From the NCBI GenBank assembly GCA_019136515.1, contig JAGVUB010000164.1, forward strand, positions 14,394 through 78,393: a stretch of DNA of 64,000 bases, given 5' to 3'. The first letter of the stretch is position 1. Every line of letters starts with the position of its first letter. A program made the translations under genes and the position numbers. This document shows, in pieces, positions 10,803-60,199 of this stretch. This DNA is from Verrucomicrobiota bacterium. GTDB lineage: Bacteria > Verrucomicrobiota > Verrucomicrobiia > Opitutales > Opitutaceae. The notes beneath the pieces were generated by a model that searched no databases, was not told the origin of the DNA, and was given only the letters and a program-made list of their open reading frames with translations.

Positions 10803-12218
10803 TCAGCCGAGCACGTGGCGGATCACATCGGCGGCGGTGTAGGTCTCGGCGTCGCCGGGGAGGAAACGGCCGAGTTGCGCGATGTCGTTGCCGGCGGTGA
10901 GGATCGGGGGCTCGGCGGTGCCGTCGGCGCGGATCTGGGCCAAGCCGGCCGTGGCGATGAGGCCGTTGCAGAGGCATTTGCGGCCGGCCAGTGCGGCCGG
11001 TTCGCCCTGCTTGCGCACGTAGTCGGCATCGGGCTCGGCGGCGCAGCGGTAGCCGAGCGAGCCGTCGGCGCGCAGGTAGGGCTCACGCAGGTAGCCGAGG
11101 TCGCAGATGCGCGGGCGGGCGGCGTAGACCGCCGCGTCCGAGAGCGTGTCGGCCATCTGGATAACCTTGAAGGGGAAGCCGGTGGGCGAGGCGAGCGGGT
11201 CGGTGTGGACGCGCACGCCCTCGGCGCGGGCGCGACGGCAGACCTCGCGGCGCAGATCGGGGCGGACGGCCGACTCCTCGCAGAAGGCGAAGGCGGTGCC
11301 GATCTGCACGCCGGCGGCGCCGGCTGCGCGGGCCTCGGCGAGCTTGGCGGGGTCGGCGCAGGAACCGGCCAACCAGAAGGGCAGACCGAGTGCGGCGATC
11401 TTCGGCAGGTCGGGCACATCGCGCGGGCCGTAGATGGGCTCGCCCTCGGCGCTGAGCTGCATCGGGCCGCGGGGTGGGGCGTTGTGGCCGCCGGCGACAT
11501 CACCCTCGACGATGAAACCGTCGACGCGGCCGGTGGACTTCTTCGCCAAGGTGGTCGCGAGGGTGGCCGAGGAGACGATGGCGAGGAACTGCGGGCGGTG
11601 CAGCTGCGGAGCGGCCTCGGAAAGAAAACCGGTGGGATCGAAGCGGGCGAAGGTCTTGCTACCGGCCGCGGCGCCGGCCACATCGATGGCGATCTCGGCC
11701 GGCTGGCCGGCAGCGAAGCGATCGAGCGCGCCGGGGATTTCGCGCGGGATGCCGGCCCCCATGAGCACGTAGTCGACCCCGGCGAGCATGGCGCCGTAAA
11801 GGGCGGTGAGCGTGCCCACCTGGATCTTCTCGAGCAGGTTGATGCCGACCGGGTTGTTGTGTCCGCGTTTTGCGAGGTGGACCTCGGCGAAATTGGCGAC
11901 GACGGTCAGCTCGGCGAGGGCGAGGGAGGGCTGTACTCCCGGCATGGCGACGGGTTTGAAGGGGGCGTCGGCCGCTTTGCCGCCGGGGACGAAGAAGGCG
12001 TTGCGCACGCGCTCGGCGATCGCGCGGATGGGGAATCGTTCGAGGGCTTCAGTCATGTGGCCGCCGGGGTCCCCGGACTGGAGGCGGCGGGCGAAGACGA
12101 CGGAGAGCAGCGTGCCGGAGACGACACCGAGCTGGCCGAGTTGGGCGACGGAGCGGGCGAGGCGCCAATTGGAGACGGCGACGCCCATGCCGCCCTGGAT
12201 GATCTGAGGTTGGGACAT
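10803..12218 (-). CDS. Nitronate monooxygenase (2-nitropropane dioxygenase family)
   Basis: N-terminus IIQGGMGVAVSNWRLARSVAQLGQLGVVSG is typical of the NMO/FMN TIM-barrel family. The start was set at ATG 12218 inside the artefactual 985-aa ORF. Confidence 0.8.
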   Translation of the reverse strand: MSQPQIIQGGMGVAVSNWRLARSVAQLGQLGVVSGTLLSVVFARRLQSGDPGGHMTEALERFPIRAIAERVRNAFFVPGGKAADAPFKPVAMPGVQPSLALAELTVVANFAEVHLAKRGHNNPVGINLLEKIQVGTLTALYGAMLAGVDYVLMGAGIPREIPGALDRFAAGQPAEIAIDVAGAAAGSKTFARFDPTGFLSEAAPQLHRPQFLAIVSSATLATTLAKKSTGRVDGFIVEGDVAGGHNAPPRGPMQLSAEGEPIYGPRDVPDLPKIAALGLPFWLAGSCADPAKLAEARAAGAAGVQIGTAFAFCEESAVRPDLRREVCRRARAEGVRVHTDPLASPTGFPFKVIQMADTLSDAAVYAARPRICDLGYLREPYLRADGSLGYRCAAEPDADYVRKQGEPAALAGRKCLCNGLIATAGLAQIRADGTAEPPILTAGNDIAQLGRFLPGDAETYTAADVIRHVLG

Positions 12219-12373: not shown

Positions 12374-13525
12374 TCAGCGGGTCGTTTGGAAATGATCGGG
12401 TCCTGTGGTTGGCGACGGGTGCGAGTTGCTCACCCGATTGTAGGCGAGACAGAGCAGCACGCCGCTGGCGAGGTCGACGAGGGCCGTCGGCGCGGAGAGC
12501 GCGGGGCCGTGGACACAGTAGGCGGCGTAACAGGCGGCGGTGGTGATGGTGAAGAGCGGCAGCGGCTTCCGGCCCAGCGACGAGAGGAAGCGCAGAATCG
12601 GCATCCGCGGGATGGTGGCATTCCGAAGCAGGAGGCCGAAGGCAAAGAGGGTGAGCAGGCTGTGCGCGAGGTAGGGCCACTCCAGCATTGCCTTGCCGCG
12701 CTCGGGCTGGAGCAACCCGACCCAATAGGCCCACGGCATGGGCAGCAAGGCTGCGGCATGGCGCACGAAGGCGCAGAACAGCAGCATCGCCCACGCGGCC
12801 GCGAGGACCACCGAGGTCCGGCCGGTGCCGGAGACGAGCGGGGACCGGTGGTCGTGGAGCCAGCCGCCGAGGTGGAAGAGCAACTGCCAGGAGAGCGGAT
12901 TGAAGGTCCAACCGGTGAACAACCAAGGGCCGAGTGCCAAGCTGGCGAGGTAGAGGACGAGCGCGAGCGCCAGCGGCGGCACACGGAAGCGGTGCTCCGC
13001 ATGCAGGGTGAGCATGAAAAGTCCCAGCACGACGACATAGGTCGGCAGGATGTCGGTGCCGAGGCCGTTGAGGTCGAGCGTGGCCGCGGCGCCGGCGGCG
13101 GCGAGCGGGGCGTGGGCGGCGAGTTGGAACGCCGGCCGCTCCGCCCACCAGGGCAGCGGCTCCCCGCGGCCGCTCAGGTACAAGGCGGCGAGGATGTAGA
13201 GCGCGGCAAGCAGGAGGTTGCAGAGGTAGAGTTGCCCCATGCGTTTGGCGATGCGCAGGGAGGCGACCCCGAGGCCGCGCTGCCGCGCCAGCCGGCTGTA
13301 CACCAACTGGGCTACGAATCCGCTGATCAGGAAGAACCAGGCGGCGGTGTCGGAGAAGCCGTGGGGCTTGGTCGTCCACGCCTGCAGCGGGCTGGGGGGC
13401 AGGTGGTTGACGAAGATCGCCAGGATGGCGACGCCCCGCCAGAAGTCTACAAGATGGATACGCTCGGCCGGTGCGCGCACGGCCGGCGGCGCGGCGGTGG
13501 GGGCGGAGCGGGGCGCGGTGGTCAT
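12374..13525 (-). CDS. OpgC-like integral membrane acyltransferase
   Basis: 383 aa and polytopic. The N-terminal motif DFWRGVAILAIFVNH is typical of the OpgC/acyltransferase-3-like family. Confidence 0.7.
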   Translation of the reverse strand: MTTAPRSAPTAAPPAVRAPAERIHLVDFWRGVAILAIFVNHLPPSPLQAWTTKPHGFSDTAAWFFLISGFVAQLVYSRLARQRGLGVASLRIAKRMGQLYLCNLLLAALYILAALYLSGRGEPLPWWAERPAFQLAAHAPLAAAGAAATLDLNGLGTDILPTYVVVLGLFMLTLHAEHRFRVPPLALALVLYLASLALGPWLFTGWTFNPLSWQLLFHLGGWLHDHRSPLVSGTGRTSVVLAAAWAMLLFCAFVRHAAALLPMPWAYWVGLLQPERGKAMLEWPYLAHSLLTLFAFGLLLRNATIPRMPILRFLSSLGRKPLPLFTITTAACYAAYCVHGPALSAPTALVDLASGVLLCLAYNRVSNSHPSPTTGPDHFQTTR

Positions 13526-48269: not shown

Positions 48270-48346
48270 TGGCGCGGGGGACGGGACTCGAACCCGTGAC
48301 CGACGGTTTAGAAAACCGTTGCTCTATCCGGCTGAGCTACCCCCGC
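48270..48346 (-). tRNA. tRNA-Arg (anticodon TCT), CCA encoded
   Basis: The reverse complement folds by hand into a cloverleaf. Acceptor GCGGGGG/CCCCCGC, D arm GCTC/GAGC, anticodon arm ACGGT-TTTCTAA-ACCGT, T arm ACGGG-TTCGAGT-CCCGT, discriminator G + CCA. Confidence 0.93.
48308..48346. repeat. attL core: 39-bp direct repeat (tRNA-Arg positions 1-39)
   Basis: TTAGAAAACCGTTGCTCTATCCGGCTGAGCTACCCCCGC is identical to 60161-60199. Confidence 0.9.
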
Positions 48347-48435: not shown

Positions 48436-49557
48436 ATGCGCAAAACACCCGTCGAAAAGGAGCAAACGCAACCGGAGCAGAGCCCAGATGAGCCTCTGTT
48501 TCAGAAAGTCGGCGAATGCCTGTACCGGCGCCAATCATCTCAGGTGTATTACGCCCTCGTGAAGCGTGCCGGCAAGCAGCATCGAAAGTCGCTCAAGACT
48601 ACGGATCGGAAGCTGGCGGAGCGCCTGTTGGCCGATTACCGCCGCGAGATTGGCGCGGTGAAGCCGACAGTGGGAGGGAGAAGCGTTACCTTGGGCGAAG
48701 TCGCCAAGCGGTGGCTTGAGGCCAAGAAGCCCTTCCTGAAGCCGATGTCATTCAAGCGTTGTGAGACGAGCGTGGGCCAGCTCTGCCGCTTGTTGGGGAC
48801 GGTCGCGGTTCGGAAGATCTCGCCGACGATGCTTGAGGACTGGGCGAGCAAGCGGATTAAGGAAGGGCGCAGCCCGAAGGGGCTCAGCGCATCGACCTAC
48901 AACAACGAGCGCGACACACTCATCGCCATCCTCGACCAGGCGAAGCGGGACGGCCACTTGCTCGATAACGTCGCCGAGGCGCTCCCGCGCCGAAAAGGAG
49001 AGAAGAAAGCGAAGGTCATCCCGTCCAAGGAGGACTTCGCGAAGTTGGTCCAGGTGTTGCGGGCGTGCGACCATCGCTCGCAGGCCGCGGCCGATTTGGT
49101 TGAACTGGCGGCGTACACCGGCGCGCGACTTGGCGAAGTGACGACGATGCGCTGGCGCGACATCCTCTTTGAGAAAGGCCGCTTCGTCATCACGGGCGGA
49201 GAGAAGGGGACGAAGAACAGCGAGGCGCGGGAGCGGCCTCTATTTCCGGCGGCCCGCGCTCTGCTGGAGCGCATGCGCGAACGGGACAAGCCCCAGCCGG
49301 ACGATTTGATCATTAGCATCACCTCTGCGAAGCGCGCCCTGACCTCCGCATGCAAGAAGGCCGGGATTCCGCGGCTCACCCATCACGTCATGCGCCATTT
49401 CTTTGTCAGTAACGCCATTGAGGCCGGTGTGGATTTCAAGACCATCGCGGATTGGATAGGACACAAGGACGGCGGCGTACTTGTCGCCAAGACCTACGGA
49501 CACCTGCGCGATGCTCACTCTTTTGAGATGGCAAAGAAGATGACGTTCTCGGCGTAA
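48436..49557 (+). CDS. int: Tyrosine-type site-specific integrase
   Basis: C-terminal catalytic region with ...GARLGEV..., HHVMRHFFVS, and GHKDGGVLVAKTYGHL (R-H-R-Y type signature). It is adjacent to the tRNA. Confidence 0.92.
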   Translation: MRKTPVEKEQTQPEQSPDEPLFQKVGECLYRRQSSQVYYALVKRAGKQHRKSLKTTDRKLAERLLADYRREIGAVKPTVGGRSVTLGEVAKRWLEAKKPFLKPMSFKRCETSVGQLCRLLGTVAVRKISPTMLEDWASKRIKEGRSPKGLSASTYNNERDTLIAILDQAKRDGHLLDNVAEALPRRKGEKKAKVIPSKEDFAKLVQVLRACDHRSQAAADLVELAAYTGARLGEVTTMRWRDILFEKGRFVITGGEKGTKNSEARERPLFPAARALLERMRERDKPQPDDLIISITSAKRALTSACKKAGIPRLTHHVMRHFFVSNAIEAGVDFKTIADWIGHKDGGVLVAKTYGHLRDAHSFEMAKKMTFSA

Positions 49558-49568
49558 TTGGACCTGCC

Positions 49569-50225
49569 ATGCCATTGCCCGCATCGAAACGAGACGCCCA
49601 GTTGGAATTCGCAAGGCGAGTCCAAGATTTCGAGCGTTTTGCTGCGGACCTTGAATTAGCCCCACAATGGGCACGCGAAGCATTCAACCGTGGGGCGTGT
49701 TCGATGCCATTGGTAACCGCGATCTTCGCCATGGAAGACCAACCTCAAGCTTTCGCTGAGGGATTTCTCGCGGAGTTATTCACCGCTGTCTTTGGACGAA
49801 TCGTGAATGAAGGTGCTGATCTTGCGAAGGAGGAAGCGGCGAAGCACCCAGAGGACGTGAAGCTTCAGGAGGAAGCCGCCGGTTCGAAAAAGATCAGTGA
49901 GAAGCTGAATACCGCGTTCGGCCGTTTCTTCGGAAATCGGATGGCACGCGCAGGAGCAGAGAGGGAGCAATTTCTCCGGGGAGTTGAGCTATGGAGACGG
50001 CTGATGCCTGGAGACAGTCTGGATTTCCTTCGCGGCAATTTGGGCAACCTCGCGACTGAGCCTTATCTCTACCTCGCTGCATTTTGGAGGGAGTTCGCAG
50101 AGCTGAAGTCGATCAAAGAGGCCCACTTCGCGCTGTTTTGTATGTTCGACAAAAACGAAGCCTTGGCGGGTACGTTCGAGGCGTTTCGAAAACGAGCCCA
50201 AGTGATTGGGCTCAAGTATACTTAG
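49569..50225 (+). CDS. Hypothetical protein (island-borne)
   Basis: 218-aa ORF starting 11 nt after int. No family recognised. Confidence 0.55.
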   Translation: MPLPASKRDAQLEFARRVQDFERFAADLELAPQWAREAFNRGACSMPLVTAIFAMEDQPQAFAEGFLAELFTAVFGRIVNEGADLAKEEAAKHPEDVKLQEEAAGSKKISEKLNTAFGRFFGNRMARAGAEREQFLRGVELWRRLMPGDSLDFLRGNLGNLATEPYLYLAAFWREFAELKSIKEAHFALFCMFDKNEALAGTFEAFRKRAQVIGLKYT

Positions 50226-50538: not shown

Positions 50539-50748
50539 ATGCCCTCCGCTGTTCCCGGAGTCCCGCGAGGCAAGCTTGCCCTTCCGCGCTTCGAGGCTGC
50601 CAAGGTTCTTGGCCTCACCCTTGAGCGCCTGGACCAATTTGTCGTCCGCGGGCTGCTCCGCCCCTCGCGGGCGCTTCGCCGGCCGCTCTTCCCCGTTTGG
50701 GAGCTGGAGCGTTTCCGCGGCGCCATGGCGCAAACCATCAACGCGTGA
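50539..50748 (+). CDS. Second excisionase-family HTH protein (tandem paralogue)
   Basis: LPRFEAAKVLGLTLERLDQFVVRGLLRPSRALRRPLFPVWELERF parallels the upstream gene. An alternative GTG start at 50524 overlaps the previous stop. Confidence 0.65.
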   Translation: MPSAVPGVPRGKLALPRFEAAKVLGLTLERLDQFVVRGLLRPSRALRRPLFPVWELERFRGAMAQTINA

Positions 50749-50759
50749 GGCCTGCTGCG

Positions 50760-51059
50760 ATGAACACCACCCCGACTTCACACACGCAGCACGGGCAACC
50801 GCTCGAAAATGCGGCAAATGCCCGACGCTTTCCTCTGGTCGTTTTCTGGCTCAGCTCCTGCCAAGCGACGAAACGGCCGTTTCAGGCCTTTATCGCTATC
50901 CTGGCGATTGCGAGCCAAACGCCGCCTTGCGTTTCGTCTGCCCCTTTGATGGCGGCCCTCTCGGGCGTCCTCGCGGATCGCCTGAAACGCGGGAAAACGG
51001 CCGTTTCGAATTGGGCCTTTGCGCTGTTCACCTTCTGGACGAAAGGCCCCCGCCAATGA
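50760..51059 (+). CDS. Possible small hypothetical protein
   Basis: 99-aa ORF whose stop overlaps the next ATG (ATGA). By hand count, third-position GC is ~70% in this frame and ~56% in the alternative frame. Confidence 0.35.
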   Translation: MNTTPTSHTQHGQPLENAANARRFPLVVFWLSSCQATKRPFQAFIAILAIASQTPPCVSSAPLMAALSGVLADRLKRGKTAVSNWAFALFTFWTKGPRQ

Positions 51060-52153
51060 GCACCGAACCCCTTTCCCATACTCCAGAAAACGCCCAACAA
51101 AACGCCAGCCGAACGGAAACGCCCCCGCCCATCGCGTTTTTCACCCCGTCTGAGCTGACCGCCTATGACCCGCCCGAAGGGGGGCGTTTGGTCGGCCACA
51201 ATCACATCACCAAGGGCGCAACGGCCGTTATCGCCGGCGCCGCCGGCATTGGCAAAAGCCGCGCGGCGGTTGGCCTCGCGGTCGCGGGCGCACGTGGCGT
51301 CGATTGGATGGGGCTGACCGTTCACCGGCGTTTCCGCTCCCTCATTATCCAGAGCGAAAACGGGCCTTTGCGTTTGAAAGACGAGTTCTCGGCCATCGGG
51401 ACGAACGACCTCGACGGGTATATCCGCGTTTCCCCTCCGCCGCCGTTTGGCTTCGAATTCGGAAACGCCCAATTTGTGGCGGAGATTAAGGCTGCGTTGG
51501 CCGATTTCCAGCCCGACATCGTTATCCTCGACCCTTGGACGGCCACCGTTACCGACGACAAAGGGAAGGACTATCGGGAAACGCTCCAGCTCTTGAAACG
51601 GGTGTTTGGCTGCGGTGACGACAGCCCCGCCTTGGTCATCGTCGCCCACACCCGAAAGCCCGGAAACGGCGACCGTGTTCCCCGCGGCCGGAGTCTTATG
51701 CATGAGGTCGCAGGCTCTTACGTGCTCACCTCGCACGCCCGATGCGTTTTCAACATGCTACCCGCATCGGACGATACGTCCGATGACCGGATCGTTTTCG
51801 AGAACTCGAAAAACAACGACGGCCAACAGGTGAAGCCGTCCGCCTGGCACCGGCAAAACGGCCTTTTTCTGCCGTGCCCCGATTTCGACTGGAACGCCTA
51901 CAACGGCAAACAGGAGCGGGGACGCAGCAAAATTGGCCGCGGTGACCTTCGGGAGGTGTTCGAGAAGGCCGGAGGACCGATGACCCGGCAGGATGCCGTA
52001 AAAGCGCTTCGTGAGGTCACCGGGTGCTCCAAAAGCGTCGCCTACGACGCCCTCAGCAACGATGGTTCGTTTGCCGAATGCCTCGCAGCCGAAGGGGCCA
52101 TGCTCCGCTGGAGCGAATCGGAGGCGGAGGATTCCGAGTCCGACCATGCCTAA
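51056..52153 (+). CDS. RecA-fold AAA ATPase (RepA/AAA_25-like), probable island replication/mobilisation protein
   Basis: Walker A GAAGIGKS, Walker B DIVILDPW, and VIVAHTRK typical of RepA-like proteins. The C-terminus looks like a winged helix. Confidence 0.7.
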   Translation: MSTEPLSHTPENAQQNASRTETPPPIAFFTPSELTAYDPPEGGRLVGHNHITKGATAVIAGAAGIGKSRAAVGLAVAGARGVDWMGLTVHRRFRSLIIQSENGPLRLKDEFSAIGTNDLDGYIRVSPPPPFGFEFGNAQFVAEIKAALADFQPDIVILDPWTATVTDDKGKDYRETLQLLKRVFGCGDDSPALVIVAHTRKPGNGDRVPRGRSLMHEVAGSYVLTSHARCVFNMLPASDDTSDDRIVFENSKNNDGQQVKPSAWHRQNGLFLPCPDFDWNAYNGKQERGRSKIGRGDLREVFEKAGGPMTRQDAVKALREVTGCSKSVAYDALSNDGSFAECLAAEGAMLRWSESEAEDSESDHA

Positions 52154-52294: not shown

Positions 52295-54835
52295 ATGAAA
52301 GAGGCCTCCGCCCGCATCAAAATCAACAAGCTGCTCGAAGCGGCGGGCTGGCGTTTCTTTGCCGATAGCACCGGGCCGGCCAACATCCAGCTTGAGCCGG
52401 CCGTGGCGCTCAAGTCCCACGACCTCGACGCCCTCGGCGAGGACTTCGAGAAAGCGAGCAAGGGCTTCATCGACTTCCTGCTCCTCAACGAGAAGGGCTT
52501 CCCGTTCATCGTACTTGAGGCGAAGGCGGAGAACAAAAACCCGCTCGTCGGCAAGGAACAGGCCCGCAAGTACGCCCGCTCACAGAACTGCCGCTTCGTC
52601 ATCCTCTCCAACGGCAACCTGCACTACTTCTGGGACCTGGAGCGCGGGAATCCCTACATCATCACCGCCTTCCCTCGGCCGGACTCGGTCACCGGTTACC
52701 AGAAGACCACGCCGGACCCGAAGCGCTTCATCGAGGAGCCCATCGGCGACGACTATGTGGTCCTGACCCAGCGGCCCAGCTATGCGGCCGAGGCTGCCTG
52801 GAAAAACCCTGCCGAGCGCGCCCGCTTCATCGAGGTCAATGGCCTGCGCTTCCTCCGCCCCTACCAGAAGCAGGCCGTCGTCGCCGTCCAGCAGGCCGTT
52901 GCGAAGGGTTACGACCGCTTCCTCTTGGAGATGGCCACCGGCACCGGCAAGACGCTCACCGCCGCCGCCCTCATCAAGCTCTTTCTCCGCACCGGCAATG
53001 CCCGCCGCGTCATCTTCCTCGTCGACCGCCTGGAGCTGGAGGACCAAGCGCTGAAGGCCTTCCGCAAGACTCTCGCGAACGACTACCGCAGCGTCATCTA
53101 CAAGGAGAACCGCGACGACTGGCGCCACGCCGAGGTCGTCGTCACCACCGTTCAGTCGCTGCTTTTCAACAACAAGTACCAGCAGCTCTTTTCGCCGACG
53201 GACTTCGACCTCGTCATCTCCGACGAAGCCCACCGTTCCATCGGCGGTAACGCCCGCGCCGTCTTCGACTACTTCATCGGCTACAAGCTCGGCCTTACCG
53301 CCACGCCTCGCGACTACCTCAAGAAGTTCGACAAGAACAAGCCCGGCACCCGCGACCCGCGGGAGCTCGAGCGGCGCCTCCTGCTCGACACCTACCGAAC
53401 CTTTGGCTGCGACGACGGTCAGCCCACATTCCGCTACTCCCTGCTCGACGGCGTGAAGGACGGTTTCCTCATCAACCCGACCGTTGTCGACGCCCGCAGC
53501 GAGATAACCACCCAGCTCCTCGCCGACGAGGGCTTTGTCGTGGAGTTCAAGGACGAGGACGGCGACGACCAGAAGGAGACCTTTGCGCAACGCGATTTCG
53601 AGAAACGCTTCTTCTCTCCGGCCACCAATCAGCTCTTCTGCAAAACCTTTCTCGAAAACGCACTCCGTGACCCCATCAGCCGGGAGATTGGCAAGTCCAT
53701 CGTCTTTGCCGTCAGCCAGAACCACGCGGCCAAGCTCGTGCAGATCCTCAACGAAATGGCCGACCGGATGTTCCCCGGCAAATACCAGTCCGATTTCGCC
53801 GTGCAGGTCACCTCGCAGGTCGACGGCGCCCAGCAGCACACGATCAATTTCACCAACAACAATCTCCTCGGCTCCGCCAATTTCCTGCCGCTCTACCGCA
53901 CCAGCAAGGCCCGCGTCTGCGTCACCGTCGGCATGATGACCACCGGCTACGACTGCCCGGACATCCTCAACCTCGGCCTCTTCCGTCCAATCTTCTCGCC
54001 GACCGACTTCATCCAGATCAAGGGCCGCGGCACCCGGAAGCACGACTTCCGCGAGCAGCTCTTCGACGAGGCGCTGAAGGAGAACGTCGCCGCCCCGAAA
54101 AAGACTGCCTTCAAGCTCTTCGACTTCTTCGCTAACTGCGAATTCTTCGAGGAGAAGTTCAATTACGACGAAGTCCTCAAGCTGCCCAAGCCGAAGAGCC
54201 CCGGCGGCACCGGTGGCCCCGGTCCCGTGCCCGGCCCCACTGCCACCGTCACCACCTACGAGCACCTCGGCGACGACCTGCTCGCATCGCTCCAAGTCGA
54301 GGAGATCGGACAAGAGGGCATGCGCATCGACCGCGAGTTCTACGCGAAATTCGAGCACGTCGTGCGGGAGAACGAATTCATCGCCGCCAGCGTCGAGGCC
54401 GGCCAATGGGACCGCGTGCTCGACTACGTGAACCACGAGGTCTTCGACAAGCCCACCGAGTTCTACACCCTCGAAAAGCTCCGCCGCGCCGCCGCCGTTG
54501 ACCGCCGCCTCACGCTCCGCGAGATCCTCGAAAAGATCTTCGGCCTCATCCCGCGCTTCAAATCGAAGGACGAGCTCCTGGAGGAGGAGTTCTCCAAGTT
54601 CGTCGCCGACTACAAGCCCGAGGAGTCCGACGCTATCCCGGCGCTCAAGACCTACTTCAAGGCCTATGTTAGCAGCGACCAGGTCCGCCATATCATCGAG
54701 ACCGGGCAACTGACAGACCTCGCCACCAATCCCGTTTTCACGACCAAGGATTTTAAGGCTGTCCCGGCGAAGTATCGTGCCCTCATCCCCGACTACGTCA
54801 AAGACTACGTCTCGCTGAACCAGTTCGTCGCCTGA
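52295..54835 (+). CDS. hsdR: Type I restriction enzyme R subunit (HsdR-like: PD-(D/E)xK nuclease + SF2 helicase)
   Basis: N-terminal nuclease motif (IDFLLL...FIVLEAKAENK), helicase motif I ATGTGKT, motif II VISDEAHRS, and the later motifs TATP and QIKGRGTR. Confidence 0.88.
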   Translation: MKEASARIKINKLLEAAGWRFFADSTGPANIQLEPAVALKSHDLDALGEDFEKASKGFIDFLLLNEKGFPFIVLEAKAENKNPLVGKEQARKYARSQNCRFVILSNGNLHYFWDLERGNPYIITAFPRPDSVTGYQKTTPDPKRFIEEPIGDDYVVLTQRPSYAAEAAWKNPAERARFIEVNGLRFLRPYQKQAVVAVQQAVAKGYDRFLLEMATGTGKTLTAAALIKLFLRTGNARRVIFLVDRLELEDQALKAFRKTLANDYRSVIYKENRDDWRHAEVVVTTVQSLLFNNKYQQLFSPTDFDLVISDEAHRSIGGNARAVFDYFIGYKLGLTATPRDYLKKFDKNKPGTRDPRELERRLLLDTYRTFGCDDGQPTFRYSLLDGVKDGFLINPTVVDARSEITTQLLADEGFVVEFKDEDGDDQKETFAQRDFEKRFFSPATNQLFCKTFLENALRDPISREIGKSIVFAVSQNHAAKLVQILNEMADRMFPGKYQSDFAVQVTSQVDGAQQHTINFTNNNLLGSANFLPLYRTSKARVCVTVGMMTTGYDCPDILNLGLFRPIFSPTDFIQIKGRGTRKHDFREQLFDEALKENVAAPKKTAFKLFDFFANCEFFEEKFNYDEVLKLPKPKSPGGTGGPGPVPGPTATVTTYEHLGDDLLASLQVEEIGQEGMRIDREFYAKFEHVVRENEFIAASVEAGQWDRVLDYVNHEVFDKPTEFYTLEKLRRAAAVDRRLTLREILEKIFGLIPRFKSKDELLEEEFSKFVADYKPEESDAIPALKTYFKAYVSSDQVRHIIETGQLTDLATNPVFTTKDFKAVPAKYRALIPDYVKDYVSLNQFVA

Positions 54836-54856: not shown

Positions 54857-57388
54857 ATGCTCGACTCCGATACCAAACGCCGCATCGACACCGCCCGCGA
54901 CATCCTCGTCGGCAAAGTCCCCGACCCGAAGTCCCAGGTCGAGCAGATCACCATCGCCCTAATCTACAAATTCATGGACGACATGGACGCCGAGTCCGAG
55001 GAGCTCGGCGGCAAGCGGAAGTTCTTCGTCGGCGATTTCGCCCGCTACGGCTGGGCCAAGCTCATGCGCTCCGGACTCGGCGGCCACGAGACGCTCGCCC
55101 TCTACGGCGAGGGTATCACGAAGATGACGGAAAACCCCGGCCTCCCGTTGCTCTTCCGCGACATCTTCAAGAACGCCTACCTCCCGTACCGCGACCCCGA
55201 GACGCTCAAGGCCTTCCTGAAGATCATTGACGAGTTCCGTTACGACCACTCCGAGCGCCTTGGCGACGCCTTCGAGTACCTTCTCTCCGTCCTCGGCTCG
55301 CAGGGCGACGCCGGGCAGTTCCGCACCCCGCGCCATATCATCGATTTCATCGTCGAACTCGTCGCCCCGCAGAAGGGCGACGTGATCCTCGATCCCGCCT
55401 GCGGCACCGCCGGCTTCCTCATCTCAGCCTACAAGCACATCCTCCGCTCCAATACCGACGCCAAGGGCCACTCTTGCCTCACGCCCGACGACCGCGGCCG
55501 ACTCGCCAAGAACTTCAGGGGCTACGACATCTCGCCCGACATGGTGCGGCTCTCCTTGGTGAACCTCTACCTCCACGGCTTCACTGATCCCCACATCTAC
55601 GAGTACGACACCCTCACCTCCGAGGAGCGATGGAACGAGTACGCCGACGTCATTCTTGCCAACCCGCCCTTCATGTCGCCGAAGGGCGGCATCAAGCCCC
55701 ACAAGCGTTTCTCCATCCAGGCCAAGCGCAGCGAGGTGCTCTTCGTCGACTACATCGCCGAGCACCTAACGCCTACTGGCCGCGCCGGCATCATCGTGCC
55801 CGAGGGGATCATCTTCCAGAGCCAGACCGCCTACACCGAGCTCCGAAAGGCCCTTGTCGAAAATTCCCTTGTCGCCGTCGTCTCGTTGCCTGGCGGCTGC
55901 TTCAACCCGTACTCCGGGGTGAAGACCAGCATCCTCATCCTCGACAAGTCGCTTGCGAAGCGCGCCGCCACCATCGCCTTCTTTAAGGTCGAGAACGACG
56001 GCTTCGGCCTCGGCGCCCAGCGCCGCGCCATCGACCAGAACGACCTGCCCGCGGTGCAGGCCGAGCTCGCCGCCTACCTCGCCGCCCTCCGCCGCGGCGA
56101 CTCCGCGCCGGCAGCGTCGTCCACCAGTCTCGTCGTCCCGAAGGCCAAGATCGCCGCCAACGGCGACTACAACCTCAGCGGCGAGCGGTATCGGGAGGGC
56201 GTGGCCAGCACGTCCTCGTTCCCCTCCGTAGCTCTTGGTGAAATCTGCGAACTGGTACGTGGTGTTGTCTTCTCAAAGGAAGATGAAGTGTCCGAGGGGG
56301 GCGCCCAGGTGCTTCGGGCCAACAACATCAACAAAGACCGCTACGAGCTGAACTTGGACGACATCAAACGCGTGTCGCCCAAAGCCGACTTCTCAGACGA
56401 CAAGAAGCTGAAAAAGGACGACATCTTTATCTGCCTCGCGAGCGGGAGCAAAGATCACGTCGGCAAGGTTGCGCTCATCAAGAGCGACACCGATTTCTAC
56501 TTTGGCGGCTTCATGGGCGCGATCCGCGTCAAGGCTGGTCGACTTCTTCCGGGCTACCTGCTGAAGCAGCTTACGACCGGCCATTTCAACAATTTCCTGC
56601 GGGACCAGATTGCCGGCGCCAACATCAACAATCTCAGCGGGGGACTGCTCTACCGCTTCCAAATCCCCCTGCCGCCGCTGGAAGTGCAGAAGGAGATCGT
56701 GGCGGAGATCGAGGGCTACCAGGCCGTCATCGACGGCGCCCGCGCCGTCCTCGACCACTACCGCCCCCACATCCCCATCGACCCCGCTTGGCCGCAGGTG
56801 GCTCTAGGCGAAGTTTGCGCAATTAAGTCAGGCGGAACACCGGACCGATCAAAGGAAGCCTATTGGGGCGGTACTATCCCTTGGGTCACAACAACGCTCA
56901 TCGACTACGGGATCATTGACCGGGCAAACGAGTACATCACCACAGAAGGACTGGAAAACTCCTCCACCTGGATTGTGCCCAAGGGGACTGTCTTGATGGC
57001 GATGTACGGACAGGGTGTGACCCGTGGACGGGTTGCCGTTCTCGGCATTGATGCAGCGATTAACCAAGCCTGCGCAGCCTTTCTGCCCAAAGATCGATCA
57101 CTTGACACCGGATTTCTGTTTAGGGTGCTCCAGTCTCGATATGAGGACCTTCGGAGGGTTAGCGACGCTCGCGGGGGAAACCAAAGCAACCTGAGCGCAC
57201 AAGTTTTAAAGGAGTATTCCATCACCATCCCGCCCCTTGAGACGCAGCAGGCCATCGTGGCGGAGATCGAAGCGGAGCAGAAGCTGGTCGCCGCCAACCG
57301 CGAACTCATCGAGCGCTTCGAAAAGAAGATCCAGGTCACCCTCGCCCGCATCTGGGGCGAGGAATCGCCCGCTGTGTCGGAGGGATAA
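54857..57388 (+). CDS. hsdMS: Fused type I methyltransferase-specificity polypeptide (HsdM N-terminal, two-TRD HsdS C-terminal)
   Basis: HsdM motif I DPACGTAGFL and motif IV ANPPFMS. From about residue 450 there are two target-recognition domains, each followed by a conserved helix (PLPPLEVQKEIVAEIEGYQ; IPPLETQQAIVAEIEAEQK). Confidence 0.88.
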   Translation: MLDSDTKRRIDTARDILVGKVPDPKSQVEQITIALIYKFMDDMDAESEELGGKRKFFVGDFARYGWAKLMRSGLGGHETLALYGEGITKMTENPGLPLLFRDIFKNAYLPYRDPETLKAFLKIIDEFRYDHSERLGDAFEYLLSVLGSQGDAGQFRTPRHIIDFIVELVAPQKGDVILDPACGTAGFLISAYKHILRSNTDAKGHSCLTPDDRGRLAKNFRGYDISPDMVRLSLVNLYLHGFTDPHIYEYDTLTSEERWNEYADVILANPPFMSPKGGIKPHKRFSIQAKRSEVLFVDYIAEHLTPTGRAGIIVPEGIIFQSQTAYTELRKALVENSLVAVVSLPGGCFNPYSGVKTSILILDKSLAKRAATIAFFKVENDGFGLGAQRRAIDQNDLPAVQAELAAYLAALRRGDSAPAASSTSLVVPKAKIAANGDYNLSGERYREGVASTSSFPSVALGEICELVRGVVFSKEDEVSEGGAQVLRANNINKDRYELNLDDIKRVSPKADFSDDKKLKKDDIFICLASGSKDHVGKVALIKSDTDFYFGGFMGAIRVKAGRLLPGYLLKQLTTGHFNNFLRDQIAGANINNLSGGLLYRFQIPLPPLEVQKEIVAEIEGYQAVIDGARAVLDHYRPHIPIDPAWPQVALGEVCAIKSGGTPDRSKEAYWGGTIPWVTTTLIDYGIIDRANEYITTEGLENSSTWIVPKGTVLMAMYGQGVTRGRVAVLGIDAAINQACAAFLPKDRSLDTGFLFRVLQSRYEDLRRVSDARGGNQSNLSAQVLKEYSITIPPLETQQAIVAEIEAEQKLVAANRELIERFEKKIQVTLARIWGEESPAVSEG

Positions 57389-57391
57389 GCA

Positions 57392-58138
57392 ATGGAAGAA
57401 GCCCTCGAACTCTCCAACTACCTGCCGCTCTCCTTCAAAACGCCGAAGGAACAAGAGTACATCGAGTTTCTATGGGAAGCGTTCGACACGAACTACCAGG
57501 CGGGAAAGTACCAGTTCGCGTTCCTCGCGTACCACATGCTCACGATGAGCTTCGTGTATTTCAACATCTGGCAGATCAAGCAGACCGAGCCGGCCGATTT
57601 CGAGAAGGGCCTCATCGGCTTCGGCAGGGAGGTCGAAAAGAACCTTCTCGGGGCAACCTCACCCTTTGTTTTCAGCACGGTGAACGAACGCTCGATGTTG
57701 CGTTTCCTGAAATTGATCGGTTGCGACAACGGCAAAGTCGGTACCTACGCCAAGCTCGTTGATGACCGCAACGAATCCGCCCACCCCAACGGAAACATAT
57801 TCTACAGCGACCAGAGTGCTCTCGACCGGAAGATCGCGGAGGTCCTCCGCGTCGCGGAAGAGATCCAAGTCCATTCGAGACCGGTTATCGAGCGCTGTTA
57901 CCGCGAGTTTCTCCTGGAGAGTCACGACAACGAGGATCGTCAGTACCCCGAGGCGAAGGACCAAATTTTCGAGGTGCTGATCCACGAGAACTACCTGTCG
58001 CAAAAGGATATTGAGTACTGTCTGGCATTCGACCTGTCGCAGCTTGCAGATCAACCCGCGTTCACGGCGATCCAGTCACTACACCAAGCGCTCGTCGCGC
58101 TCTTCCCGGATTCGGTTCCAGCGACCGCCGCAAAGTAA
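57392..58138 (+). CDS. HEPN-like protein (RNxxxH motif)
   Basis: 248 aa and all-helical-looking. LVDDRNESAHPNG contains R126-N-x3-H131 (nt 57767-57784). It starts 3 nt after hsdMS. Confidence 0.5.
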   Translation: MEEALELSNYLPLSFKTPKEQEYIEFLWEAFDTNYQAGKYQFAFLAYHMLTMSFVYFNIWQIKQTEPADFEKGLIGFGREVEKNLLGATSPFVFSTVNERSMLRFLKLIGCDNGKVGTYAKLVDDRNESAHPNGNIFYSDQSALDRKIAEVLRVAEEIQVHSRPVIERCYREFLLESHDNEDRQYPEAKDQIFEVLIHENYLSQKDIEYCLAFDLSQLADQPAFTAIQSLHQALVALFPDSVPATAAK

Positions 58139-58143
58139 CTACC

Positions 58144-59202
58144 ATGTCCTTCAGCATGAAACTCTGGCAGGTCGCCGAAGATGGCGGCCTGAAGTCGGTC
58201 CCGAAATCCGTCCTCGATAAGGAGGCCCGGCTGGAGGAGTGGGTTCGCAAAGACCCGAGCTTGCTCGGTATGGACGTGCTGATCATCGGCCAACAGGTCG
58301 TGACTCCAAACGGGGGCCGCATCGACCTGCTCGCCCTCGATGCCGAGGCCAACCTCGTCGTCCTCGAACTCAAGCGCGACAAGACCCCGCGGGAGGTCGT
58401 TGCCCAGGCGCTGGACTACGGCGCCTACGTGCGGCGGCTCTCGTTTGACCGCATCGACGAACTGGCTCGGAGCTACTGCGGTAAGCCCGTGGCCGATGCC
58501 TTCGCCGAGCATTTCGCCGAGCCATTGCCGGATGAGATCAACCAGAGCCACCAGCTCATCATTCTGGCCTCGGAGCTGGACGAATCGTCCGAGCAGATCG
58601 TCGAGTACCTGACCGAAGCGTACCAGGTCCCGATCAACGCGATCTTCTTCATCTTCTTCAAAACCGTCCAGGGCGAGTTTCTTGGCCGGGCATGGCTGAT
58701 GGACCCCGAGGAAGTCCAGGAGCGCGCCGTGTCCAACAAGCAGGCTCCCTGGTCCGGCTACTACTTCGTGAACGTCGGCGAGGGCGAGCACCGCAACTGG
58801 GACGACTGCCGCGAGCACGGCTTCCTCGCCGCTGGCCACGGGCTCAAGTACAGCCGCCCTCTCCGCAAGTTGAACGAAGGCGACCTCGTTTTCGCCTACA
58901 TGAAGCAGACCGGCTACGTCGGCTTCGGTAAGGTCGTCCAACCCGCCGCCGCCGTCCGTGACTTCATCGTGGCCAAAGAGGGCAAGAAGCTCCTCGACCT
59001 GTCCCTTCGCCAACCAGGGATCGCCGACCTCGCCGAAGACCCCGAAATGGCCGAATGGGCCGTCGGCATCGAATGGAAGAAGACCTTCAACCGCGACGAG
59101 GCCAAGTGGTTCAAGGACGCCTTCGCCAACCAGAACATCGTCTGCAAACTCCGCGACCCCGCCACCGTCACCTTCCTGAAAAAGGAGTTTGGCGCCCAAT
59201 AG
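58144..59202 (+). CDS. NucS/DUF91-like PD-(D/E)xK nuclease fused to a C-terminal PUA/EVE-like domain
   Basis: N-terminal half: EEWVRKDPSLLG...GRIDLLALDAEANLVVLELKRDK...VVAQALDYG (D61, E75, K77; nt 58324-58374). C-terminal half: WSGYYFVNVGEGEHRNWDDC...LNEGDLVFAYMKQTGYVGFGKVV, resembling EVE/ASCH-type readers. The C-terminal call is tentative. Confidence 0.6.
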   Translation: MSFSMKLWQVAEDGGLKSVPKSVLDKEARLEEWVRKDPSLLGMDVLIIGQQVVTPNGGRIDLLALDAEANLVVLELKRDKTPREVVAQALDYGAYVRRLSFDRIDELARSYCGKPVADAFAEHFAEPLPDEINQSHQLIILASELDESSEQIVEYLTEAYQVPINAIFFIFFKTVQGEFLGRAWLMDPEEVQERAVSNKQAPWSGYYFVNVGEGEHRNWDDCREHGFLAAGHGLKYSRPLRKLNEGDLVFAYMKQTGYVGFGKVVQPAAAVRDFIVAKEGKKLLDLSLRQPGIADLAEDPEMAEWAVGIEWKKTFNRDEAKWFKDAFANQNIVCKLRDPATVTFLKKEFGAQ

Positions 59203-59204
59203 CT

Positions 59205-59789
59205 ATGGCAACCGACTCTGAGCTCGAGTCTGCTCGTGATCTGGTCTTTCAGGGGATGGGGCGGAACTTAATCCATTTCCAGCGCCTCGAACTGATGCTG
59301 AAGCATATCCTCGGGCGTTATCGGGCTTCAGTTACGGTTGGGACCAAGGAATGCGATGTGGCGCAACGCCAGTCGGCGGTGGAGAAGAAGACTCTGGGCC
59401 TTCTCGCTGGAGAGCTTTTTGAAGACCTACTCGTGAGGCTATCCGACGATGGTGCGTTCCCACCTCATGAGCCGGACCCGGACAAGCTTTCCTATCGTGT
59501 CTGGTTGGGGCTTCCCGCGGAGGACCATGCAGCTGAACAAGCCCGGCTCAAGGGATTGATCGAGGAACGAAACCAAATGGTGCACACCTCTCTCTTGACG
59601 ATGGATCTCCGCACGATCGAAGGCTGCCAAGCTGCGGTGCGGCAGCTCGACGAGCAGCGCGGTCGAATCCAGGCGGAGTTCGAACGAGCGAGAAACTACA
59701 GCGAGAAGGTGACCGCCACAGCGAAGCAGCATTTGGAGAAGATGCTGGATCCCGCTTTTCGCAAGGGGCTGGGCTTTCGTGCGGAATGA
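59205..59789 (+). CDS. Hypothetical helical protein with a second RNxxxH (HEPN-like) motif
   Basis: 194 aa. LIEERNQMVHTSL contains R122-N-x3-H127 (nt 59568-59585). It starts 2 nt after the nuclease gene stop. Confidence 0.4.
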   Translation: MATDSELESARDLVFQGMGRNLIHFQRLELMLKHILGRYRASVTVGTKECDVAQRQSAVEKKTLGLLAGELFEDLLVRLSDDGAFPPHEPDPDKLSYRVWLGLPAEDHAAEQARLKGLIEERNQMVHTSLLTMDLRTIEGCQAAVRQLDEQRGRIQAEFERARNYSEKVTATAKQHLEKMLDPAFRKGLGFRAE

Positions 59790-60015
59790 TCAACTCGATC
59801 GGGTCGAGGCCGCGGGGAGGGCATTGAGTCTTTGCGCGTGTTACCCGCTGGCCGCGGCTTCAGGTTACACTTTGAGCCGGATGCGAGCGCAACGGTTTCG
59901 TTTCGTGGTGCTCCATTCGGCGGGGCTCAAAATGTCGTCATGTGTATTCGAGAATCGGTTTTTGGAAGCATTGTTGAGGTGCCATTTTGCGTCTCTCAAA
60001 AGCCCTGGGAACCGA

Positions 60016-60160: not shown

Positions 60161-60199
60161 TTAGAAAACCGTTGCTCTATCCGGCTGAGCTACCCCCGC
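60161..60199. repeat. attR core: orphan copy of the tRNA-Arg 5' half (39 bp)
   Basis: Identical to 48308-48346. No tRNA 3' half follows, so this copy is not a functional tRNA. Confidence 0.9.

Follow-up and report, generated by a model that had tools for sequence, protein, structure and literature searches.

Three accessory genes, one of them a putative HEPN guard, behind a mobile type I-like restriction-modification operon in a Verrucomicrobiota bacterium

We analysed three open reading frames (ORFs) that directly follow a restriction-modification (R-M) operon in a 64,000-nucleotide stretch of a Verrucomicrobiota genome (contig JAGVUB010000164.1), referred to here as the window. ORF1 (57392–58138, 248 amino acids), ORF2 (58144–59202, 352 amino acids) and ORF3 (59205–59789, 194 amino acids) lie on the + strand behind hsdR and hsdMS, a gene for a fused HsdM-HsdS protein. 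Comparison with other genomes and metagenomes showed that ORF1, ORF2 and ORF3 do not form a conserved module and are accessory cassettes independent of one another. We consider it likely that they are accessory defence genes stacked behind hsdMS in a mobile type I-like R-M operon, and that ORF1 is a HEPN guard linked to the R-M genes.

Results

Gene layout

The gaps between the genes are short: 3 nucleotides (nt) separate hsdMS from ORF1 (57389–57391), 5 nt separate ORF1 from ORF2 (58139–58143) and 2 nt separate ORF2 from ORF3 (59203–59204). No promoter-like or terminator-like site was found within 57000–59800. This is consistent with co-transcription of ORF1 to ORF3 without proving it, and the three genes are probably co-transcribed with the R-M operon. 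The start of ORF3 was placed at 59205 and not at that of a longer ORF from 59055, as its homologues begin at the same residue. A check of the ORFs and gaps confirmed the coordinates, strand, lengths, spacing and motif residue numbers reported for this DNA in an earlier note, which had described the genes from the sequence.

Distribution of the three genes

Co-occurrence was examined in 80 genome loci carrying ORF1, in 80 metagenomic loci carrying PDC-S11, the family of ORF2, and in eight contexts of ORF3 relatives. None of the 80 ORF1 loci and none of the 80 PDC-S11 loci contained ORF3, and neither ORF1 nor PDC-S11 was present in the eight ORF3 contexts. PDC-S11 followed ORF1 in two of the 80 ORF1 loci (L072 and L073) and in a separate metagenomic lineage (L004–L007), and ORF1 preceded PDC-S11 in one of the 80 PDC-S11 loci (L149). 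PDC-S11 was also found next to unrelated type I systems: 21 of its 80 loci adjoined genes that match the methylase-specificity fusion at 23–36% identity, and 10 adjoined HsdR-like genes at 24–28% identity.

A sister locus, L180, is closely related to the window at the nucleotide level in hsdR (93.5% identity), the methylase (M) part of hsdMS (93.3%) and ORF2 (92.7%), and encodes the closest relative of the ORF2 protein (95% identity). Its gene order is hsdR, KilA-N, hsdMS, DUF3800, a gene of 173 amino acids, ORF2, AAA_21 and DUF4276. L180 lacks ORF1 and ORF3. The DUF3800 gene (227 amino acids) and the 173-amino-acid gene, which had no family match, occupy the ORF1 slot (L180:8541-9742), and the AAA_21 and DUF4276 genes occupy the ORF3 slot.

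The earlier note had proposed that the three proteins form a hetero-oligomeric effector against RNA and DNA, with a nuclease between two HEPN proteins. This proposal receives no comparative support, because ORF3 was never found with the other two, ORF1 and PDC-S11 met only sporadically, and L180 carries ORF2 without ORF1 or ORF3. The three families were not found together elsewhere in the gene-neighbourhood comparison, an outcome that had been set beforehand as counting against the proposal.

Linkage of ORF1 to the R-M genes

The neighbourhoods of ORF1 were compared in the 80 genome loci, which represent more than 15 phyla, and linkage was counted where enough upstream sequence was available. 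An hsdMS fusion was located upstream on the same strand in 59 of the 61 loci with at least 3 kb of upstream sequence, and hsdR was located upstream in 48 of the 52 loci with at least 6.5 kb. By both counts, ORF1 resides near-exclusively in a type I R-M operon. The HsdR proteins of these loci are 68–85% identical to that of the window. Mean pairwise identity across the loci was 0.757 for HsdR, 0.818 for the M part and 0.715 for ORF1, and the pairwise identities of ORF1 followed those of HsdR (Mantel r = 0.43; none of 999 permutations reached this value). ORF1 habitually accompanies a single type I-like R-M family, and the dependence is one-sided, as the R-M pair can be without ORF1. A second-line role coupled to restriction, which the earlier note had ascribed to all three genes, is plausible for ORF1, nearly always attached to this R-M family.

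Operon junctions as cargo sites

Cassettes are exchanged at the junctions of this operon. More than 300 nt were inserted between hsdMS and ORF1 in 26 of 59 ORF1 loci. The cargo at this junction included PDC-S02 (Mrr), PDC-S06 (AAA_13 ATPase), PDC-M68A/B (ABC-3C), SIR2+HerA, PDC-S21 (DUF4917), putAbiC and ABC-ATPase genes. The junction of hsdR with hsdMS held PDC-S22 (KilA-N) in seven loci, or else a PDDEXK_3 gene. ORF1 was followed by DRT reverse transcriptases, PDC-S20 (KAP NTPase), SIR2+HerA, PDC-S06 and PDC-S21. Cassettes of the same types occur on both sides of ORF1.

Several loci retain displaced pieces of hsdMS. The last ~25–45 residues of HsdM-S, with its conserved C-terminal helix, are repeated directly after ORF1 in four loci (L052:10746-10820, L069:3572-3712, L075:3116-3247 and L089:10731-10856), and after other cargo in L087 (6390-6461) and L180. 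These remnants suggest that recombination in the conserved 3′ part of hsdMS, or in the conserved repeats of the S subunit, brings in the cassettes, ORF1 among them. No displaced remnant of hsdMS or of the ORFs was found within the window. L180 also carries a displaced copy of the ORF2 C-terminus (the displaced copies of L180 are at 11060-11134 and 12930-13085), and the functional hsdMS genes of L069 and L075 have one target-recognition domain only. A docking tail shared by the C-termini of ORF1 and HsdR was considered after a tblastn match (E=0.6), and was rejected as the profile-profile probability was below 1%.

HEPN-like features of ORF1 and ORF3

ORF1 belongs to an unnamed HEPN-like family. 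We collected 2,741 homologues from more than 15 phyla, of which the best 120 are 70–91% identical to ORF1, and an exhaustive search grouped the family into 935 clusters at 50% identity. The window protein had no match in Pfam, PADLOC, NCBIfam or PHROGs, and the RefSeq label for a plasmid copy of the family is 'hypothetical protein'. ORF1 carries the motif RNESAH at R126–H131 (nt 57767–57784). In an alignment of 48 diverse relatives, 28–53% identical to ORF1, R126 and H131 were the sole invariant columns and N127 was conserved in at least 90%. The family therefore carries the hallmark of HEPN proteins, Rx4-6H with a polar residue after the arginine.

ORF3 belongs to a small orphan HEPN-like family of 47 relatives, none with a Pfam annotation, and carries RNQMVH at R122–H127 (nt 59568–59585). 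The residues invariant in 42 of its relatives were G19, N21 and E29 in the first helix, and R122, N123 and H127, which again conform to Rx4-6H. Because RNESAH, RNQMVH and the D61/E75/K77 residues of ORF2 are invariant in the family alignments, they are not chance strings.

When scanned singly, 25 of the 48 ORF1 relatives weakly matched the Pfam family HEPN_RiboL-PSP (best E=1.1e-5). HEPN_MAE_28990 was matched by five of the 48 and HEPN_Swt1 by one, and the remaining families by one member each (18 families in all). For ORF3, 18 of 42 relatives weakly matched HEPN_RiboL-PSP (best E=5.5e-4) and four matched the HEPN family DUF3644. DUF4145 (PF13643) was not matched by the window ORF1 or ORF3 at E values up to 0.1; it was missing from the 18 families that ORF1 relatives matched and from the 25 listed, of 48 matched in all, for ORF3 relatives.

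The HEPN motif has been placed at the C-terminal end of a helix and in the loop that follows, before a long helix (PMC3710099). In the AlphaFold2 model of ORF1 (predicted local distance difference test, pLDDT, 85.8), helix 113–128 ends at R126/N127, H131 lies in the following loop, which is predicted with low confidence, and the next helix spans 141–177. In the ORF3 model (pLDDT 79.6), the motif closes helix 105–127, and the next helix spans 138–180. The motif position in the predicted secondary structure of both proteins fits HEPN, since it corresponds to the published placement. ORF1 and ORF3 are best read as divergent HEPN domains and putative ribonucleases (RNases), because RNxxxH is invariant, sub-threshold matches to HEPN_RiboL-PSP recur and the motif is predicted at the expected position.

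Some members of the ORF1 family have C-terminal extensions (P0266, 538 amino acids; P0186, 784 amino acids; P0168; P0182; P0215). One of them is fused to a TIR domain (TIR_2, E=1.5e-15), and another has ~540 additional residues without a Pfam match. Neither sequence nor profile search of the PDB with ORF1 gave a match. The ORF3 profile matched the HIV-2/SIV matrix protein in the PDB (E=0.002–0.005) over residues 111–190 with a shared 'EGCQ', which we took as chance helical similarity.

ORF2 is a member of PDC-S11

ORF2 matched the PADLOC model of PDC-S11 (PDLC04916) over its full length (E=4.1e-130; residues 1–350 against positions 1–355 of 358). The PDC families are candidates defined by their embedding in type I R-M, BREX and DISARM loci (bioRxiv 10.1101/2024.01.29.577857). 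The trio had been described in the earlier note as unrecognised among named defence systems; its middle gene is already catalogued as a PADLOC candidate. The NucS-type D...ExK core predicted for the middle protein was borne out. NucS_C of Pfam was matched by all 35 members of the ORF2 family examined, and the family profile matched the NucS structure 2vld in the PDB (E=6.8e-6). Residues 25–98 form the NucS-like PD-(D/E)xK core, including D61, E75 and K77 (nt 58324–58374). ORF2 was not accepted as a NucS orthologue. On the NCBIfam NucS model PRK04247.1 (NF003270), it scored 36.9 bits against a cut-off of 216, only the catalytic part (25–98) was aligned, and the remainder of ORF2 is unrelated.

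Conservation is also strong in the C-terminal domain of ORF2, where W203, G205, W219, G231, D247, G257, G260 and W311 are invariant. The PUA/EVE-type reader that the earlier note suggested for this domain was not confirmed: the one hint was a weak similarity of residues 207–268 to Pfam EVE (E=0.11; 12.9 bits, with the cut-off at 23) in one of 35 members, and a YTH match (E=0.018) fell elsewhere, at residues 150–207. An antisense ORF of 382 amino acids (58051–59199, − strand) spans nearly all of ORF2. It is a high-GC artefact, as the product of the + strand has a full-length family match.

Genomic contexts of ORF3

The relatives of ORF3 were found singly, in the same orientation, as tail genes of unrelated defence loci. 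These contexts were MmeI+NERD, an ATPase operon for CTD7-, MC3- and LmuB_C-domain proteins, HNH+Mrr, a fragment of an S subunit, and GmrSD. A distant relative of 279 amino acids was found in a Vibrio prophage. A phage origin was considered and rejected for both HEPN-like genes: among 50,697 phage records, ORF3 had no match and ORF1 had one weak match, and among 2.9 million viral contigs each had one relative.

The R-M genes and the mobile island

The HsdR-like restriction subunit (52295–54835, + strand, 846 amino acids) consists of an N-terminal HSDR_N nuclease and a ResIII/DEAD motor, and matched Pfam ResIII (4e-38) and HSDR_N (3.5e-7) and PADLOC REase_I (5.8e-58). After a spacing of 21 nt, the fused HsdM-HsdS protein (54857–57388, + strand, 843 amino acids) combines an N6 methyltransferase and two target-recognition domains on one polypeptide; it matched Pfam N6_Mtase (2e-49) and, in two stretches, Methylase_S (1e-37), and PADLOC MTase_I (2e-94). 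These genes have the components of a type I R-M system, namely an HsdR nuclease with a superfamily 2 (SF2) motor, HsdM, and an HsdS with two target-recognition domains, and they vary from it in the M-S fusion. The NCBIfam model of the EcoAI family was matched only partly (219.9 bits against a cut-off of 550). Across the loci, the M part is more conserved (0.82) than the whole M-S fusion (53–79%), as expected if the target-recognition domains are swapped. Further long shadow ORFs over hsdR and hsdMS are typical high-GC artefacts and not genes.

The whole R-M operon and ORF1 to ORF3 are carried by an 11.85-kb island integrated in a tRNA-Arg gene, and ORF3 is the last gene of this island. ARAGORN detected tRNA-Arg(TCT) at 48270–48346 on the − strand. 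A perfect 39-bp direct repeat consists of a left att copy (48308–48346) within the tRNA gene and a right copy at the island end (60161–60199). It duplicates the 5′ half of the tRNA gene, and not the usual 3′ end. A tyrosine integrase (48436–49557, + strand; Pfam Phage_integrase, E=2e-19) is followed by a gene for 218 amino acids without a family match (49569-50225) and by a Pfam AAA_25 protein (50576-52153), and the island also has small HTH-like ORFs. Two copies of the decamer AGTAACCCGG lie just inside either island end (48403, 48416, 60016 and 60028), giving four copies against 0.06 expected, and these copies are probably arm sites of the integrase. The GC content of the island is 0.56–0.63, against 0.67–0.72 in its flanks.

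Discussion

Proposed functions and alternative explanations

In the explanation we prefer, the three genes would act separately. By analogy with known R-M-linked RNases, ORF1 would be a dimeric HEPN-type RNase of the AbiD/F / RiboL-PSP branch that is held latent by the R-M complex. A phage that disables or overwhelms restriction would release ORF1, and the released enzyme would then cut host or phage RNA, so that the infection is aborted. ORF2 may be a stand-alone candidate defence nuclease that cuts DNA once its C-terminal domain senses a ligand, a nucleic acid or another signal. ORF3 may be a second, unrelated HEPN-like gene, from a rare family that moves alone between defence loci, and could act as a solitary defence.

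Several observations weigh against this explanation. The R-M pair does not require ORF1, as an HsdR 96% identical to that of the window was found without it. A 65%-identical HsdR is encoded on 55 enterobacterial plasmids, on none of which an ORF1 relative was found; on the one plasmid examined, pL37-4 of E. coli (L186; NZ_CP034592.1, 8987-16535), it is followed by a shorter N-6 methylase (677 amino acids) and a 'TrlF family AAA-like ATPase'. The remnants of the hsdMS 3′ end after ORF1 suggest that ORF1 itself is an inserted cassette. Two of the HEPN_RiboL-PSP matches scored 17.6 and 16.6 bits, below the curated cut-off of 28.4 bits, and the window ORF1 and ORF3 match no HEPN model. In the ORF1 structure prediction, the motif loop (127–135) has a pLDDT below 50, and one of five models was confident. 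Foldseek searches with the ORF1 and ORF3 models against the PDB, and with ORF1 also against BFVD, gave nothing significant; generic helical bundles were returned, all with E values of at least 0.27 and TM-scores below 0.35, which neither establishes nor disproves a HEPN fold. Finally, the tight spacing of 2–5 nt could still mean a functional coupling specific to this island. The 55 plasmids are mostly conjugative, pL37-4 is of the IncFIA type, and the PGAP label for the R subunit is no more specific than 'DEAD/DEAH box helicase family protein'.

ORF1 might instead be a non-toxic integral subunit or regulator of the R-M family, acting in restriction alleviation, assembly or RNA binding, and not an RNase of abortive infection. 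Its conservation over the whole length at a level near that of HsdR, its almost exclusive occurrence with the hsdR/hsdMS pair, and the existence of HEPN domains that are non-catalytic RNA binders (PMC3710099) would fit such a role. We regard it as unlikely, however, because the sole invariant residues are an R and an H of catalytic type, close relatives of the R-M genes occur without ORF1 (L180 and the enterobacterial plasmids), the insertion scars are cassette-like and one relative carries a TIR effector domain as a fusion.

It is less probable still that ORF1, ORF3 or both are not HEPN proteins, and that RNxxxH has another function in a different helical fold. The scores below the curated threshold, the Foldseek results and the empty PDB sequence search agree with this possibility. 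On the other side, HEPN_RiboL-PSP tops the weak matches in both families, the next most frequent being matched by five and nine members, respectively, and most others by one to a few; the motif is positioned relative to the predicted helices as in HEPN, and the defence context is typical of HEPN genes. The reading of both flanking proteins as HEPN-like in the earlier note is backed by the invariant motif and the recurrent weak matches; the matches stay below the curated cut-off, and Foldseek found no HEPN counterpart. The explanation in which ORF1, ORF2 and ORF3 build one hetero-oligomeric effector, with two different HEPN subunits that enclose a DNA nuclease in a composite RNase site, and with coupling to the type I enzyme, is very improbable: its genes share a strand with short gaps and no internal promoter-like or terminator-like sites, RNxxxH is conserved in both flanking proteins and at least three other lineages (L004–L007, L072/L073 and L149) have PDC-S11 behind ORF1, but the distribution in the 160 sampled loci, the eight ORF3 contexts and the sister locus speaks against it, and the profile-profile alignment (hhalign) of ORF1 with ORF3, which was also the ground for rejecting them as a duplicated pair, covered only 18 columns around the motif with a probability of 25.6% and therefore gave no sign of a co-evolved pair.

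The preferred explanation, with ORF1 as an R-M-linked guard, can be extended, although we hold the extension only tentatively. ORF1 could mark a hitherto undescribed immune scaffold anchored on R-M genes in many phyla, composed of hsdR, hsdM-S and a guard RNase, in which the 3′ end of hsdM-S and ORF1 serve as recombination anchors for the capture and swapping of cassettes. It is conceivable, with similar reserve, that the displaced hsdMS remnants are scars of such swapping, that ORF2 and ORF3 make up the cargo at present, and that ORF3 represents a new HEPN defence consisting of one gene.

Comparison with known systems

In the PrrC/EcoprrI system, the R-M complex masks an RNase until an anti-restriction factor of the phage releases it (PMC3710099; bioRxiv 10.1101/2024.01.29.577857). 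ORF1 resembles PrrC as a putative HEPN-type nuclease gene that hardly ever occurs apart from a type I R-M operon, and in its one-sided dependence on an R-M pair that can be without it. In contrast to PrrC, ORF1 has no ABC-ATPase domain detected by Pfam and no PADLOC match to PrrC, and cannot be assigned to that family. ORF1 follows the fused hsdM-S, whereas the PrrC gene is located between hsdS and hsdR. The putative HEPN domain of ORF1 is nearest to the RiboL-PSP / AbiD-F branch and not to the PrrC/RloC branch, and its latency and trigger are proposed by analogy.

Links to R-M systems have been described for at least 16 HEPN clades (PMC3710099), and the families described by Anantharaman et al. 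(2013) include DUF4145, ApeA, AbiJ, AbiU2, EC042_2821/DUF3644, RiboL-PSP-HEPN and others. ORF1 and ORF3 are similar to these families in being small Rx4-6H proteins near R-M genes, which have been proposed as a second prong of defence. They differ in falling below every Pfam HEPN threshold, and DUF4145 is unmatched. The RiboL-PSP family has been described in fusion with endoRNase L-PSP or in an operon with ParB, and not with type I R-M genes, where ORF1 is located.

ORF2 shows no sequence difference that would set it apart from PDC-S11 and adjoins type I R-M genes like the founding members; PDC-S11 itself is a predicted candidate. ORF2 shares with the mismatch endonuclease NucS/EndoMS the catalytic domain, aligned at residues 25–98, and the rest of the protein is unrelated to it. 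For ORF3, the best experimental precedent of an action alone is HEC-08, a validated single embedded HEPN gene in which mutation of the Rx4-6H histidine abolishes defence. HEC-08 differs from ORF3 in having C-terminal zinc fingers and a bona fide DUF3644 domain, while ORF3, with 194 amino acids, has a faint similarity to DUF3644 (E=0.21).

The embedding of HEPN and other defence genes in R-M operons is known, and PDC-S11 is catalogued; the ORF1 family is very large and unnamed, and the ORF3 family is a rare orphan. That the three genes were not upheld as one effector spares a costly cloning effort directed at the wrong unit. The junctions of this R-M operon are a rich and well-delimited source of candidate defence genes, among which ORF3 represents a rare family. 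The interest of this locus rests mainly on ORF1. Its family has thousands of members in more than 15 phyla, lies outside Pfam, NCBIfam, PADLOC and PHROGs, and has HEPN active-site residues as its sole invariants. With this family, a 'guard of restriction' of the PrrC kind can be put directly to the test in a far simpler, two-domain-free form.

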